Below, piece by piece: positions 12,179 through 55,691 of a stretch of DNA of 64,000 nt. How positions within the stretch are numbered: the stretch's first letter is position 1; every line of letters starts with the position of its first letter. The notes below the pieces were generated by a model that saw only the letters and a list, made by a program, of their open reading frames with translations, was not told the DNA's origin and searched no databases. Origin of the DNA: Escherichia coli (lineage in GTDB: Bacteria > Pseudomonadota > Gammaproteobacteria > Enterobacterales > Enterobacteriaceae); the NCBI RefSeq assembly GCF_003018235.1, contig NZ_CP027437.1; one strand, given 5' to 3'. A program made the translations under genes and the position numbers.

Positions 12179-13567
12179 ATGGCACTGCAAAATGAGAAAA
12201 CTAGTCGTTATCTTTTGCGCGACTGGAAACCAGAAAATCCGGCCTTCTGGGAAAATAAAGGAAAACATATTGCTCGAAGAAACCTCTGGATATCAGTCAG
12301 TTGTCTACTTCTTGCCTTCTGTGTCTGGATGCTATTTAGCGCAGTTACTGTTAATCTCAATAAAATCGGTTTTAATTTCACTACCGATCAACTCTTTTTA
12401 TTAACCGCATTACCCTCCGTTTCTGGCGCATTATTGCGTGTCCCCTACTCCTTTATGGTGCCTATATTTGGTGGACGCCGATGGACGGTTTTTAGTACTG
12501 CAATCCTGATTATTCCTTGCGTCTGGCTCGGAATTGCCGTGCAGAATCCGAATACTCCTTTTGGGATATTTATCGTTATCGCTTTGCTATGCGGTTTTGC
12601 AGGTGCGAACTTTGCTTCGAGCATGGGCAATATCAGTTTCTTCTTCCCAAAAGCCAAACAAGGGAGCGCACTTGGGATTAATGGCGGATTAGGAAACTTA
12701 GGTGTAAGTGTGATGCAGCTGGTTGCACCGCTGGTCATTTTTGTACCCGTATTTGCCTTTCTCGGCGTCAATGGCGTACCGCAGGCCGACGGTTCGGTGA
12801 TGTCGCTGGCGAATGCCGCATGGATTTGGGTGCCATTACTGGCGATTGCCACGATCGCCGCCTGGTCAGGGATGAATGATATCGCCAGTTCACGCGCGTC
12901 AATTGCCGACCAGCTGCCAGTGTTACAACGCCTGCATCTCTGGCTGCTGAGCCTGCTTTACCTTGCCACCTTCGGTTCGTTTATCGGTTTTTCTGCGGGT
13001 TTTGCCATGCTGGCGAAAACTCAGTTCCCTGATGTGAATATTCTGCGCCTGGCGTTCTTTGGCCCATTTATTGGTGCCATCGCGCGGTCGGTTGGTGGTG
13101 CTATTTCAGATAAATTCGGCGGAGTGCGGGTGACGTTGATCAACTTCATTTTTATGGCGATTTTCAGCGCCCTGCTGTTCCTTACCTTACCGGGCACAGG
13201 CTCCGGTAATTTCATCGCATTTTACGCCGTATTTATGGGGTTGTTTCTGACCGCAGGTCTGGGAAGTGGTTCTACTTTCCAGATGATCGCCGTCATCTTT
13301 CGCCAGATAACCATTTATCGGGTGAAGATGAAAGGCGGTAGTGATGAGCAAGCTCAGAGAGAAGCCGTCACCGAAACGGCGGCGGCTCTGGGCTTTATCT
13401 CAGCCATTGGCGCAGTGGGCGGCTTTTTCATTCCGCAGGCGTTTGGCATGTCGCTCAATATGACCGGCTCTCCGGTAGGCGCGATGAAAGTGTTTTTAAT
13501 CTTCTACATCGTTTGTGTGCTGCTGACCTGGCTGGTTTATGGTCGGCGGAAGTTCAGCCAAAAATAA
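12179..13567 (+). CDS. narU: Nitrate/nitrite MFS transporter (462 aa)
   Basis: ATG at 12179 after GAGGAA; MALQNEKTSRYLLRDW...; 12 TM MFS. Confidence 0.92.
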   Translation: MALQNEKTSRYLLRDWKPENPAFWENKGKHIARRNLWISVSCLLLAFCVWMLFSAVTVNLNKIGFNFTTDQLFLLTALPSVSGALLRVPYSFMVPIFGGRRWTVFSTAILIIPCVWLGIAVQNPNTPFGIFIVIALLCGFAGANFASSMGNISFFFPKAKQGSALGINGGLGNLGVSVMQLVAPLVIFVPVFAFLGVNGVPQADGSVMSLANAAWIWVPLLAIATIAAWSGMNDIASSRASIADQLPVLQRLHLWLLSLLYLATFGSFIGFSAGFAMLAKTQFPDVNILRLAFFGPFIGAIARSVGGAISDKFGGVRVTLINFIFMAIFSALLFLTLPGTGSGNFIAFYAVFMGLFLTAGLGSGSTFQMIAVIFRQITIYRVKMKGGSDEQAQREAVTETAAALGFISAIGAVGGFFIPQAFGMSLNMTGSPVGAMKVFLIFYIVCVLLTWLVYGRRKFSQK

Positions 13568-13661
13568 GAGATCGATGCCTGACACGTCTTATCAGGCTAC
13601 AACCGTGTCGCACCCGACAAGGCATCAGATCCCAATTCATTCCTGGAGCAGGAGTTATGTC

Positions 13662-16600
13662 ATGAGTAAACTTTTGGATCGCTTTCGCTATTTCAAACAA
13701 AAGGGCGAAACCTTTGCCGATGGTCACGGACAGGTGATGCATAGCAACCGCGACTGGGAGGACAGCTATCGCCAGCGTTGGCAATTCGACAAAATCGTGC
13801 GTTCCACCCACGGTGTTAACTGTACAGGCTCCTGTAGCTGGAAAATCTACGTTAAAAATGGTCTGGTGACCTGGGAAATCCAACAGACCGACTACCCGCG
13901 CACTCGCCCTGACCTGCCCAATCATGAACCTCGCGGCTGCCCGCGTGGCGCAAGTTACTCCTGGTATCTTTACAGCGCTAACCGCCTGAAATACCCGCTC
14001 ATTCGCAAACGACTGATTGAACTGTGGCGCGAAGCCCTCAAACAACACAGCGATCCGGTACTGGCGTGGGCATCGATTATGAACGATCCGCAAAAGTGCC
14101 TGAGCTACAAACAAGTGCGTGGGCGCGGCGGGTTTATCCGCTCCAACTGGCAGGAACTAAACCAGCTGATTGCCGCCGCTAACGTCTGGACCATCAAAAC
14201 CTACGGCCCGGATCGCGTTGCCGGTTTCTCGCCGATCCCGGCGATGTCGATGGTTTCTTACGCCGCCGGAACACGTTATCTTTCACTATTAGGTGGTACC
14301 TGTTTAAGCTTCTACGACTGGTATTGCGACCTGCCGCCCGCCTCGCCGATGACCTGGGGCGAGCAAACCGACGTGCCAGAATCTGCCGACTGGTATAACT
14401 CCAGCTACATCATCGCCTGGGGGTCTAACGTACCGCAGACACGTACGCCGGACGCACACTTCTTTACCGAAGTACGCTACAAAGGCACTAAAACCATCGC
14501 CATTACCCCTGACTACTCTGAAGTGGCCAAATTGTGCGACCAGTGGCTGGCACCGAAACAAGGCACTGATAGCGCCCTGGCGATGGCAATGGGCCATGTG
14601 ATTTTAAAAGAGTTTCATCTCGATAATCCCAGCGACTATTTTATCAACTACTGCCGCCGCTACAGCGACATGCCGATGCTGGTAATGCTGGAACCTCGCG
14701 ACGATGGTAGCTACGTTCCCGGGCGCATGATCCGCGCGTCTGACCTGGTAGATGGACTGGGCGAAAGCAACAATCCGCAGTGGAAAACCGTAGCAGTTAA
14801 TACAGCAGGTGAACTGGTGGTGCCGAACGGTTCGATTGGTTTTCGCTGGGGAGAAAAAGGCAAATGGAATCTGGAATCTATTGCCGCCGGTACGGAAACC
14901 GAATTGTCGTTAACTCTGCTCGGTCAACATGATGCCGTTGCAGGCGTGGCCTTCCCCTACTTTGGCGGCATTGAAAATCCGCATTTTCGCAGCGTAAAAC
15001 ACAATCCGGTCCTGGTGCGCCAATTGCCCGTTAAAAACCTGACATTAGCCGATGGCAACACCTGTCCGGTCGTCAGCGTTTATGATTTGGTACTGGCGAA
15101 TTATGGCCTCGATCGCGGGCTGGAAGATGAAAACAGCGCGAAAGATTACGCTGAAATCAAACCGTACACCCCAGCCTGGGGTGAGCAAATTACCGGCGTG
15201 CCGCGCCAGTATATTGAAACCATCGCCCGTGAATTTGCCGATACCGCCCATAAAACGCATGGGCGCTCGATGATTATCCTCGGTGCTGGCGTCAACCATT
15301 GGTATCACATGGACATGAACTACCGTGGGATGATCAACATGCTGATCTTCTGCGGTTGTGTCGGGCAAAGCGGTGGCGGCTGGGCACACTATGTCGGTCA
15401 GGAAAAACTGCGCCCGCAAACCGGCTGGTTGCCGCTGGCCTTTGCGCTCGACTGGAACCGCCCACCGCGCCAGATGAACAGCACCTCGTTTTTCTACAAT
15501 CATTCCAGCCAATGGCGCTATGAAAAAGTCTCTGCTCAGGAGTTACTTTCACCGCTCGCCGATGCCAGTAAGTACAGCGGTCATCTGATTGATTTCAACG
15601 TTCGCGCCGAACGTATGGGCTGGCTACCTTCTGCGCCGCAGCTGGGGCGTAACCCGCTCGGGATTAAAGCTGAAGCCGACAAGGCCGGATTATCCCCCAC
15701 AGAATTTACCGCCCAGGCGCTGAAATCGGGCGATTTACGCATGGCCTGCGAACAACCAGATAGCGGCAGCAATCATCCGCGTAATTTGTTTGTCTGGCGT
15801 TCTAACCTGCTTGGCTCCTCCGGCAAAGGCCACGAGTATATGCAGAAGTATCTGCTGGGAACCGAAAGTGGGATTCAGGGTCAGGAACTCGGTGCCAGCG
15901 ACGGGATCAAACCGGAAGAAGTCGAGTGGCAAACTGCGGCGATTGAAGGTAAGCTCGACCTGCTGGTGACGCTCGACTTCCGTATGTCCAGTACCTGCCT
16001 GTTCTCCGATATCGTTCTGCCCACCGCCACCTGGTACGAAAAAGACGATATGAACACCTCGGATATGCATCCGTTTATTCATCCCCTATCTGCGGCGGTC
16101 GATCCGGCGTGGGAATCACGCAGCGACTGGGAAATCTACAAAGGTATTGCCAAAGCCTTTTCGCAAGTGTGCGTGGGCCATCTTGGCAAAGAAACCGACG
16201 TGGTATTACAACCACTGCTGCATGACTCTCCGGCAGAACTCTCACAGCCGTGTGAAGTGCTCGACTGGCGCAAAGGCGAATGCGATCTGATTCCAGGTAA
16301 AACTGCGCCCAATATTGTGGCGGTGGAACGCGACTACCCTGCTACCTATGAACGCTTTACCTCGCTCGGGCCATTGATGGACAAACTTGGCAACGGCGTT
16401 AAAGGGATTTCGTGGAATACCCAGGATGAAATCGATTTCCTCGGCAAACTCAACTACACCAAGCGTGAAGGCCCGGCACAGGGGCGTCCGCTGATTGACA
16501 CCGCCATTGACGCATCAGAAGTGATTCTGGCTCTTGCACCTGAAACCAATGGTCATGTTGCAGTCAAAGCGTGGCAGGCGCTGGGCGAGATCACCGGACG

Positions 16601-17402
16601 CGAACATACCCATCTGGCGCTGCACAAAGAGGACGAGAAGATTCGCTTTCGCGATATTCAGGCGCAGCCACGTAAAATTATCTCCAGCCCCACATGGTCC
16701 GGTCTGGAAAGCGATCACGTTTCCTATAACGCGGGATACACCAACGTTCATGAGTTAATTCCGTGGCGCACGCTGTCGGGACGCCAGCAGCTCTATCAGG
16801 ATCATCCGTGGATGCGTGCTTTTGGTGAAAGCCTGGTGGCTTATCGCCCGCCTATCGACACCCGTAGCGTCAGTGAAATGCGCCAGATACCGCCAAACGG
16901 CTTCCCGGAAAAAGCACTTAACTTCCTGACGCCGCATCAGAAATGGGGCATTCACTCAACCTACAGTGAAAACCTGCTAATGCTGACGCTCTCTCGCGGT
17001 GGACCGATTGTCTGGATTAGCGAAACCGATGCCCGTGAACTGACCATTGTCGATAACGACTGGGTGGAAGTGTTTAACGCCAACGGCGCGCTGACTGCCC
17101 GCGCGGTGGTCAGCCAACGTGTACCGCCGGGTATGACCATGATGTATCACGCTCAGGAACGCATTATGAATATCCCGGGCTCGGAAGTGACCGGAATGCG
17201 CGGCGGCATTCATAACTCGGTCACCCGCGTTTGTCCGAAACCAACGCATATGATTGGCGGTTACGCGCAGCTGGCCTGGGGCTTTAATTACTACGGCACC
17301 GTCGGCTCGAACCGTGACGAATTCATCATGATCCGCAAGATGAAGAACGTTAACTGGCTGGATGATGAAGGTCGCGATCAGGTACAGGAGGCGAAAAAAT
17401 GA
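13662..17402 (+). CDS. narZ: Respiratory nitrate reductase Z alpha subunit (1246 aa)
   Basis: ATG at 13662 after GGAGCAGGAG; MSKLLDRFRYFKQKGETF...; molybdopterin oxidoreductase motifs. Confidence 0.93.
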   Translation: MSKLLDRFRYFKQKGETFADGHGQVMHSNRDWEDSYRQRWQFDKIVRSTHGVNCTGSCSWKIYVKNGLVTWEIQQTDYPRTRPDLPNHEPRGCPRGASYSWYLYSANRLKYPLIRKRLIELWREALKQHSDPVLAWASIMNDPQKCLSYKQVRGRGGFIRSNWQELNQLIAAANVWTIKTYGPDRVAGFSPIPAMSMVSYAAGTRYLSLLGGTCLSFYDWYCDLPPASPMTWGEQTDVPESADWYNSSYIIAWGSNVPQTRTPDAHFFTEVRYKGTKTIAITPDYSEVAKLCDQWLAPKQGTDSALAMAMGHVILKEFHLDNPSDYFINYCRRYSDMPMLVMLEPRDDGSYVPGRMIRASDLVDGLGESNNPQWKTVAVNTAGELVVPNGSIGFRWGEKGKWNLESIAAGTETELSLTLLGQHDAVAGVAFPYFGGIENPHFRSVKHNPVLVRQLPVKNLTLADGNTCPVVSVYDLVLANYGLDRGLEDENSAKDYAEIKPYTPAWGEQITGVPRQYIETIAREFADTAHKTHGRSMIILGAGVNHWYHMDMNYRGMINMLIFCGCVGQSGGGWAHYVGQEKLRPQTGWLPLAFALDWNRPPRQMNSTSFFYNHSSQWRYEKVSAQELLSPLADASKYSGHLIDFNVRAERMGWLPSAPQLGRNPLGIKAEADKAGLSPTEFTAQALKSGDLRMACEQPDSGSNHPRNLFVWRSNLLGSSGKGHEYMQKYLLGTESGIQGQELGASDGIKPEEVEWQTAAIEGKLDLLVTLDFRMSSTCLFSDIVLPTATWYEKDDMNTSDMHPFIHPLSAAVDPAWESRSDWEIYKGIAKAFSQVCVGHLGKETDVVLQPLLHDSPAELSQPCEVLDWRKGECDLIPGKTAPNIVAVERDYPATYERFTSLGPLMDKLGNGVKGISWNTQDEIDFLGKLNYTKREGPAQGRPLIDTAIDASEVILALAPETNGHVAVKAWQALGEITGREHTHLALHKEDEKIRFRDIQAQPRKIISSPTWSGLESDHVSYNAGYTNVHELIPWRTLSGRQQLYQDHPWMRAFGESLVAYRPPIDTRSVSEMRQIPPNGFPEKALNFLTPHQKWGIHSTYSENLLMLTLSRGGPIVWISETDARELTIVDNDWVEVFNANGALTARAVVSQRVPPGMTMMYHAQERIMNIPGSEVTGMRGGIHNSVTRVCPKPTHMIGGYAQLAWGFNYYGTVGSNRDEFIMIRKMKNVNWLDDEGRDQVQEAKK

Positions 17403-21288: not shown

Positions 21289-21295
21289 AACCGTT

Positions 21296-21346
21296 GCCTG
21301 ATGCGCTTCGCTTATCAGGTCTATGTATGCCGGATAAGGCGTTTAC
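21296..21346. repeat. REP/BIME: one complete palindromic unit plus the left half of a second unit that is split by the IS; right half resumes at 22779-22797
   Basis: gcctgatgcgcttcgcttatcaggtc and gccggataaggcgtttac | ... | gtttacgccgcatccggca; joining the flanks restores a canonical REP palindrome. Confidence 0.8.
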
Positions 21347-21876
21347 TGAACTGCACCCCAAATGTTGGACACAATCTGACATCTGAAGGTGCAGTTTATG
21401 AAACATTCATTTGAAGTAAAACTTGCCGCTGTAAATCATTACCTGGCCGGTCATGCAGGCATCATTTCTACGGCAAAACTCTTTCAACTTTCTCACACCA
21501 GCCTCTCACACTGGATTAATCTTTTTCTTCTTCACGGTCCTCAGGCACTGGATTGCAGACACAAGCGTAGCTATTCTCCTGAAGATAAACTTTGCGTGGT
21601 TCTTTATGCTCTCGGGCATTCTGAGTCTCTACCCCGGGTAGCTGCCCGGTTTAACATTCCCAGCCACAACACGGTTAAAAACTGGATAAAAGGCTACCGC
21701 AAATCTGGTAATGAGGCCTTTATCAGGCGCAGGAAGGAGAAAAGCATGACCCGTTCTGATGATACCCATGAAAACGAGGCAAACATGACGCCGGAAGAGA
21801 TGAAGAATGAGCTGCGTTATCTTCGCGCAGAAAATGCATATCTGAAAGCCATGCAGGAGCATCTCCTGGAAAAAAA

Positions 21877-22778
<902 letters not shown>

Positions 22779-22809
22779 GTTTACGCCGCATCCGGCAACC
22801 TGACATAAA

Positions 22810-55600: not shown

Positions 55601-55610
55601 GTCATTTATT

Positions 55611-55640
55611 GCCGGATGCGGCGTGACGCCTTACCCGGCC
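55611..55640. repeat. REP palindromic unit
   Basis: gccggatgcggcgtgacgccttacccggcc matches the REP consensus. Confidence 0.7.
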
Positions 55641-55691
55641 AACAATATCATGCAGATTCAATAAGTTGTGAGTAACCAGAAAACTGGCGTT

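Follow-up and report, generated by a model that had tools for sequence, protein, structure and literature searches.

Some REPs lying between cotranscribed genes, such as those of malE-malF and hisJ-hisQ, affect the mRNA that carries them; these are intact, very stable hairpins, often several at a site. REPs within ~15 nt of a stop codon can also stall terminating ribosomes, as Liang, Rudd and Deutscher are said to have reported in 2015. At yjdM-yjdN, REP325 has two roles, partial Rho-dependent termination and stabilisation (bioRxiv 10.64898/2026.03.23.713779). The REP hairpin itself, when single-stranded and bearing its GTAG tag and a bulge, is bound and cleaved by TnpA-REP (PMC8266576). Among the documented sources of intergenic polymorphism BIMEs are a major one (PMC3333891), and strains differ in their REP sites (bioRxiv 10.64898/2026.03.23.713779). 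The narU-narZ spacer of Escherichia coli described here carries an element of this known kind in the best-studied of bacteria, an ordinary, strain-variable relic. Coordinates refer to the window, meaning the whole 64-kb stretch of DNA that was analysed.

Results

The stop codon of narU and the start codon of narZ delimit a spacer of 94 bp (Table 1), and 494 bp around it are 100% identical to the corresponding DNA of E. coli strain 18KM2445. The narU-narZ locus was found in 5,402 of 5,426 complete E. coli genomes. In the initial annotation two segments of the spacer, gatgcctgacacgtcttatcaggctac and gtcgcacccgacaaggcatcag, had been read together as an imperfect palindrome resembling a degenerate REP unit. 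Both strings are present, at 13574-13600 and 13608-13629, respectively, and the partial dyad symmetry ascribed to them is real, although it resides in inverted repeats that are perfect but short. These comprise GCCTGA (13577-82) with TCAGGC (13592-97), 6 bp about a 9-nt loop; GACACG (13581-86) with CGTGTC (13604-09); and GATGCCT (13574-80) with AGGCATC (13620-26), 7 bp with 39 nt between the arms, the last of which extends, with one bulge, into an 11-bp outer stem. The narZ reading frame is also open in the 5' direction through the whole 94-bp spacer, as far as an ATG at 13539 within narU (window 13539-17402), giving an ORF of 1,287 aa as compared with the 1,246 aa annotated for narZ; this opening is probably incidental, the frame relationship being different in the 81-bp allele described below.

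Table 1. Features of the narU-narZ spacer and its borders, in window coordinates.
Feature	Position	Strand	Remarks
narU stop codon (TAA)	13565..13567	+	REP relic begins 8 nt 3' of the stop
narU-narZ intercistronic spacer, 94 bp, long allele	13568..13661	+	
Outer inverted repeat, left arm GATCGATGCCT	13570..13580	+	Shares 5 nt with the start of the z2 iREP
z2-type REP relic, iREP form on the mRNA strand	13576..13600	-	z2 HMM, shuffles, folding
BIME linker relic AACCGTGTCGC	13601..13611	+	Homologous to the E. albertii linker AACGGTGTCGCCTCC
Last 8 nt of y REP, ACCCGACA (K-12 ATCCGACA)	13612..13619	+	Escherichia alignments
Outer inverted repeat, right arm AGGCATCAGATC, one bulged A	13620..13631	+	
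narZ translation-initiation region	13639..13664	+	AGGAG 13650-13654, ATG 13662-13664

Profiles, one per type, were derived from 59 real K-12 REPs (26 y, 7 z1 and 26 z2) gathered by a pattern search of 335 kb. Across the window, the top match to the z2 profile falls in the spacer (13597-13573, minus strand; 16.0 bits, E=4.9e-4) and covers model positions 5-28 of 37, the second-ranked match (8.1 bits) being a genuine z1 REP. A score of 16.0 bits was reached in none of 100 dinucleotide-shuffled windows, whose best scores averaged 6.4 bits with a maximum of 12.8, and the suspected similarity to REP families thus clearly exceeds chance. The left half of the spacer conforms to the z2 consensus, GTAGGCCTGATAAGACGCG..CAGCGTCGCATCAGGCA; with slashes marking breaks, its minus strand is GTAG-CCTGATAAGACGtG/TCAGGCA where the canonical z2 sequence is GTAGGCCTGATAAGACGCGCCAGCGTCGCATCAGGCA, and its plus (mRNA) strand carries the iREP form TGCCTGA/CACGTCTTATCAGGC-TAC. 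On the minus strand, 24 of the 25 bases retained are identical to those of real z2 copies, while about 11 central nucleotides and one G are missing. The GTAG tag has been kept (13600-13597, appearing as CTAC on the plus strand), whereas the G that follows it in GTAGG is absent. The location, extragenic and 3' of a gene, is that of typical REPs. What has been lost is the hairpin: in place of an imperfect palindrome of ~37 nt, whose long stem carries a conserved AA/GC bulge, 25 nt are left, with a 6-bp stem and a 9-nt loop, and we therefore file the element as a relic rather than as an intact z2 REP. Judged by its sequence, the left half (13576-13600) is a real z2-type REP relic, and to this extent the proposed degenerate REP unit stands, now with a type and an orientation. 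It does not extend to the right segment, which in the long allele (that of the window) matches none of the REP profiles and in K-12 reaches only 5 bits (E about 2.5).

The RefSeq record of MG1655 (NC_000913.3) annotates no REP features, not even the known REP site at 5565-5669, so that its silence on narU-narZ is uninformative. In MG1655 numbering the region is bracketed by REP118 (1534884-1534958) and REP120 (1552072-1552168), and in this interval intergenic matches to the REP models occur only in the narZ-narU spacer; the K-12 relic may already have been catalogued as REP119. The yddE-nhoA REP pair (K-12 REP118) is also present in the window, at 21295-21346. One member is of z1 type (21323-21295, minus strand; E 2.6e-8); the other is a y unit whose loop is interrupted by IS1397, 1,432 bp long (21347-22778), with the remainder of the unit at 22779-22797. 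IS1397 targets REP loops. Copies annotated 'IS3-like element IS1397 family transposase' match the inserted one at 99.7-99.8% identity. The insertion at yddE-nhoA is absent from strain 18KM2445, whose narU-narZ spacer is identical, and the window therefore derives from another strain. Another REP, nearly complete and of y type (GTTGGCCGGGTAAGGCGTCACGCCGCATCCGGCA, 55610-55643, minus strand; 22.7 bits, E 4.6e-6), is situated just past the 3' end of a minus-strand ORF of 667 aa, in a region that differs from 18KM2445.

Orthologous spacers elsewhere in Escherichia retain much of what is missing in E. coli. In E. albertii the spacer is 126 bp long and reads GAGATCGA TGCCTGATGCGAC/TTATCAaaCCaAC AACGGTGTCGCCTCC GTAGGTCGGATAAGGCATTAACGCCGCATCCGACA AGGCATCAGATC..., comprising a z2 iREP that lacks its loop and, after a linker of 15 nt, a y REP that is complete (39.1 bits, E=6.8e-11); the whole unit is nearly a base-for-base match to the canonical K-12 BIME-2 at yabI-thiQ. 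Two metagenome contigs carry a spacer of the E. albertii type. Yet another form is found on metagenome contig OLSJ01000086.1 (L101), which over 8 kb shares 90% identity with E. coli and 88% with E. albertii; here only the 5' arm of z2 remains, with GTGTCGCACCC and then a y REP that is intact, representing a fifth pattern of deletion. The same contig aligns to window positions 5738-7752 and then directly to 11993 onward, and lacks the intervening ~4.2 kb upstream of narU (7752-11993), which in the window hold porin and leucine-rich-repeat genes (yddL/yddK region).

When all alleles are aligned, the right half of the E. coli spacer resolves into GTGTCGC, A(C/T)CCGACA and AGGCATCAG, corresponding to the linker, the last 8 nt of a y REP and the flank, respectively. 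The other ~27 nt of the y REP, complete in both E. albertii and L101, are gone from E. coli, where ~31 nt have been deleted between imperfect direct repeats of the form xCGCAyCCG, i.e. (T/C)CGCA(C/T)CCG. Point variants distinguish the remnants (ACCCG in the window, GTCCG in CE10, ATCCG in K-12 and E. albertii), differences that are consistent with drift. Two other descriptions of the right segment were considered and set aside: that of a second REP unit, given the lack of a profile match in the long allele and the different origin revealed by the E. albertii orthologue, and that of the second arm of one imperfect palindrome, given the derivation from linker and y REP seen in E. albertii and L101. 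The z2 unit, for its part, now reads TGCCTGATGCGAC/TTATC... in E. albertii, is reduced to its 5' arm in L101, and in E. coli has either the long form given above or a short one, TGCCTGATG/TAC; these internal deletions differ from lineage to lineage and are non-nested.

That intact or nearly intact parts survive in the orthologous spacers of E. albertii and of a third Escherichia lineage argues that the spacer represents one ancestral BIME-2. Later insertion of the E. albertii and L101 y REPs at the same point appears unlikely, since the linker and both flanks are collinear. The layout that defines a BIME-2, z2 and y units inverted about a short linker, is found in the E. albertii orthologue, while in the window the y unit amounts to 8 nt; the window element thus belongs to BIME-2 by descent. 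Tandem arrays of BIME-2 were not found, every allele examined holding a single unit.

Within E. coli, a 181-nt query of 5,401 genomes revealed two length alleles, with 1,858 long, 3,563 short and one other. Besides the window, CE10, 042 and ST131 carry the long allele (94 bp, ~34%), whereas K-12, REL606, ATCC 8739, O157:H7 and O55:H7 carry the short allele (81 bp, 13 bp less, ~66%). The two appear to track phylogroup, with ST131, CE10 and 042 on the long-allele side and K-12, REL606 and O157 on the short-allele side. A synthetic query with the full z2 unit restored found no such allele in 5,426 E. coli genomes, and among the 5,401 there was no 'TG' intermediate joining the long and short forms. 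The short allele may derive from the long one, through a 13-nt deletion plus two substitutions, or may descend separately from an ancestor that was more complete. In E. coli K99B (NZ_CM135133.1) narU and the spacer are absent altogether, and a truncated leucine-rich-repeat pseudogene adjoins a 5'-truncated narZ pseudogene, an arrangement indicating a deletion of narU together with the spacer and the 5' end of narZ.

Spacers from Salmonella and C. sedlakii were obtained by protein look-ups, and those of other genera came from the matches listed, in which the spacers are between 37 and 168 bp long. Complete BIMEs occupy this position in two Citrobacter genomes, in the opposite, head-to-head arrangement (38.5 and 28.5 bits), while other Citrobacter among the matches listed have spacers of 37-55 bp without a REP. 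Pluralibacter and K. michiganensis carry REP types of their own, and the Salmonella and C. sedlakii spacers hold REP-like debris that escapes detection by E. coli profiles. The narU-narZ spacer is thus a recurrent home for REP-type repeats, which come and go, as fits the polymorphism of BIMEs (PMC3333891) and the strain-variable positions of REPs (bioRxiv 10.64898/2026.03.23.713779). A different feature was noted in ten spacers from Lelliottia, Yokenella, Pluralibacter, Kluyvera, Pseudocitrobacter, Raoultella, Serratia and Leclercia, where the motif GAGCAGTGTAACCAC, a GC-rich hairpin and then GTCAGGAG lie directly 5' of the narZ start. This motif, absent from Escherichia, Citrobacter and Salmonella spacers, might serve narZ as a conserved leader or in its regulation.

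Folded as RNA, the whole spacer reaches -27.4 kcal/mol (z=-2.08), a value equalled in 5 of 200 shuffles, and a 62-nt core closed by GAUCGAUGCCU/AGGCAUCAGAUC reaches -19.4 kcal/mol (z=-2.58). The hairpin of the REP relic itself is weak, at -8.2 kcal/mol (z=-3.5) as opposed to -21.4 for an intact z2. With z values from -2.08 to -3.5, the evidence for a secondary structure is marginal to moderate by folding alone. A hairpin at the narZ Shine-Dalgarno sequence (13639-45 / 13649-55) is no better than shuffles (z=-0.68). Covariance models of Rfam 15 gave no match in the spacer, their only two hits being sub-threshold chance matches outside it. A scan for promoter and terminator consensus sequences found none in 13568-13661, two terminator-consensus matches lying inside narU, and the spacer contains no intrinsic terminator of the usual kind, a GC-rich hairpin followed by a U tract.

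Discussion

Descent from a single unit plus linker by repeated internal deletions offers the simplest reading of the Escherichia alignments. One BIME-2-type repeat, composed of a z2 iREP, a short linker and a y REP placed tail to tail, would have been in place before the species of Escherichia diverged, and each lineage would then have lost a different internal piece of it. The long allele would have arisen with the loss of some 11 central bases from z2 and with the truncation of y to its last 8 by the ~31-nt deletion, and K-12-type strains would have shed 13 bp more of z2, all presumably through the slippage that is usual at palindromes. The resulting narUZYWV mRNA could form either the weak 6-bp hairpin or a stem of moderate stability that the outer 11-bp repeat closes. 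A promoter-up mutation upstream of narU causes all five nar genes to respond together (PMC11417348), which implies that transcription passes through the spacer, at least in the strain of that study. The relic would, most likely, simply be read through, lacking any dedicated function and contributing at most some modest structure to the 3' end of narU. An influence of the element on the processing or stability of narU/narZ mRNA, as suggested in the initial annotation, is neither supported nor refuted by the weak hairpin, the lack of anything terminator-like, the joint response of the nar genes and the absence of narU/narZ 3' ends from the searchable supplement text of one K-12 mapping study (see below). 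We consider it probable, with good though not full confidence, that the spacer is a decayed BIME-2 relic, most likely functionless. Descent from a BIME, loss of the defining hairpin and the lack of terminator or promoter consensus are shown by the analysis; that the remnant is passive is what we infer as most likely.

The most serious competing explanation concerns not the relic but the outer stem (GAUCGAUGCCU / AGGCAUCAGAUC), which might be a selected, functional intercistronic RNA structure enclosing a decaying BIME as passenger. The 11-bp repeat that forms this stem lies largely outside the BIME and begins 3 nt past the narU stop; both of its arms are invariant in all five allele classes (among them the two E. 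coli forms, E. albertii and L101), even as the interior of the BIME has been deleted in five ways. The stalling of terminating ribosomes at REPs near a stop codon would also favour such a role. Folding of the outer stem is moreover better than in shuffles in the window (z=-2.6), in K-12 (-3.2) and most of all in E. albertii (-5.2), and REP325 in the yjdMN operon provides a precedent (bioRxiv 10.64898/2026.03.23.713779). By analogy with intact REPs elsewhere, such a stem could stabilise the 3' end of narU mRNA, act as a partial attenuator or modulate narZ translation, and the long and short alleles would then set different narU:narZ ratios.

Sequence conservation has a bearing on the same proposal. 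The 67 nt of non-BIME flank in the spacer differ from those of E. albertii at only one position in K-12 and three in the window, an identity of 95.5-98.5% between the two species that far exceeds the 86-88% of the adjacent coding DNA; 97.1% identity is reached by only 1.75% of 70-nt coding windows in this comparison. These figures hint that some part of the spacer is constrained. The flanks were chosen post hoc, and they include both outer-stem arms as well as the narZ leader, so that the conserved stretch is in part the narZ ribosome-binding region; its conservation could reflect selection on the stem-loop together with that leader, or no more than the ribosome-binding region plus chance. There is no covariation in the outer stem, since its pairs never vary across alleles, and this is neutral either way. 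The right arm recalls a z REP head (GCATCAG), a resemblance supported by no REP profile.

Several observations weigh against a functional stem. Citrobacter, Salmonella and other genera lack it, and the nar genes are all induced together across the spacer (PMC11417348). One K-12 3'-end mapping study records no narU or narZ 3' end in the searchable part of its supplement text (eLife 62438), which is weak evidence, the operon being poorly expressed in standard conditions. On balance we regard selection for the outer stem as unlikely. The more specific proposal, that a selected stem-loop tunes narU mRNA stability or narZ translation and that the alleles confer heritable differences in NarU:NRZ, we hold to be somewhat less likely still; if true, both the alleles and the much more stable version of E. 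albertii would alter NarU:NRZ in nitrate respiration during stationary phase or starvation.

Far less probable is a REP that is still active, whether as a substrate of TnpA-REP, as a BIME bound by gyrase or IHF, or as a terminator of narU. The retention of GTAG and the extragenic position 3' of a gene would suit such an element. The G after GTAG is missing, however, and the bulged stem that TnpA-REP needs (PMC8266576) has given way to one of 6 bp; since that bulged stem is gone, the relic is presumably a TnpA-REP substrate no longer, and binding or cleavage by TnpA-REP (RAYT) is predicted to be negative. Termination, likewise, is difficult to reconcile with the lack of a U tract and with the expression of narZ to narV together with narU. 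Least credible of all is a chance palindrome unrelated to REP, which could appeal to the modest length of the separate inverted repeats (6-7 bp), to the marginal fold of the whole spacer and to the right half, devoid of a significant REP match, but which is refuted by the z2 profile statistics, unmatched by shuffles, and by intact REP units, notably the y REP, in the corresponding spacers of E. albertii and L101.

Taken as a decayed BIME-2 relic, the locus matters little in itself, relics of REPs and BIMEs and their polymorphism among strains being already well described in E. coli. It does provide a tidy example of BIME erosion, with at least five internal deletions of one ancestral unit across Escherichia. 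Only if the outer stem proves functional would it bear on the balance of the poorly understood narUZYWV operon.

Comparison with described systems

The closest relatives of the narU-narZ element are the z2 REPs and BIME-2 units, with which it shares its family and the order of its parts, namely a z2 iREP, CTAC, a linker of ~15 nt, and GTAG with a y REP. The BIME between yabI and thiQ in K-12 (L009 22133-22226) resembles it further in being extragenic and just 3' of a gene. It departs from BIME-2 in that the z2 unit of the window lacks its centre and bulged stem, the y unit consists of 8 nt, and a single unit replaces the tandem array; in addition, an 11-bp inverted repeat lies outside the BIME. 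Like REP325 of yjdM-yjdN, the relic is situated between cotranscribed genes, immediately past the upstream stop codon; unlike REP325, with its intact, very stable hairpins, 12 in a row, it is single and folds at a mere -8.2 kcal/mol. Variation between strains in the presence and length of BIME sequence at the locus recalls the BIME polymorphism of Bachellier et al. (1997), as represented by its citation in PMC3333891. That polymorphism is one of copy number, whereas the variation at narU-narZ takes the form of erosion inside single units.
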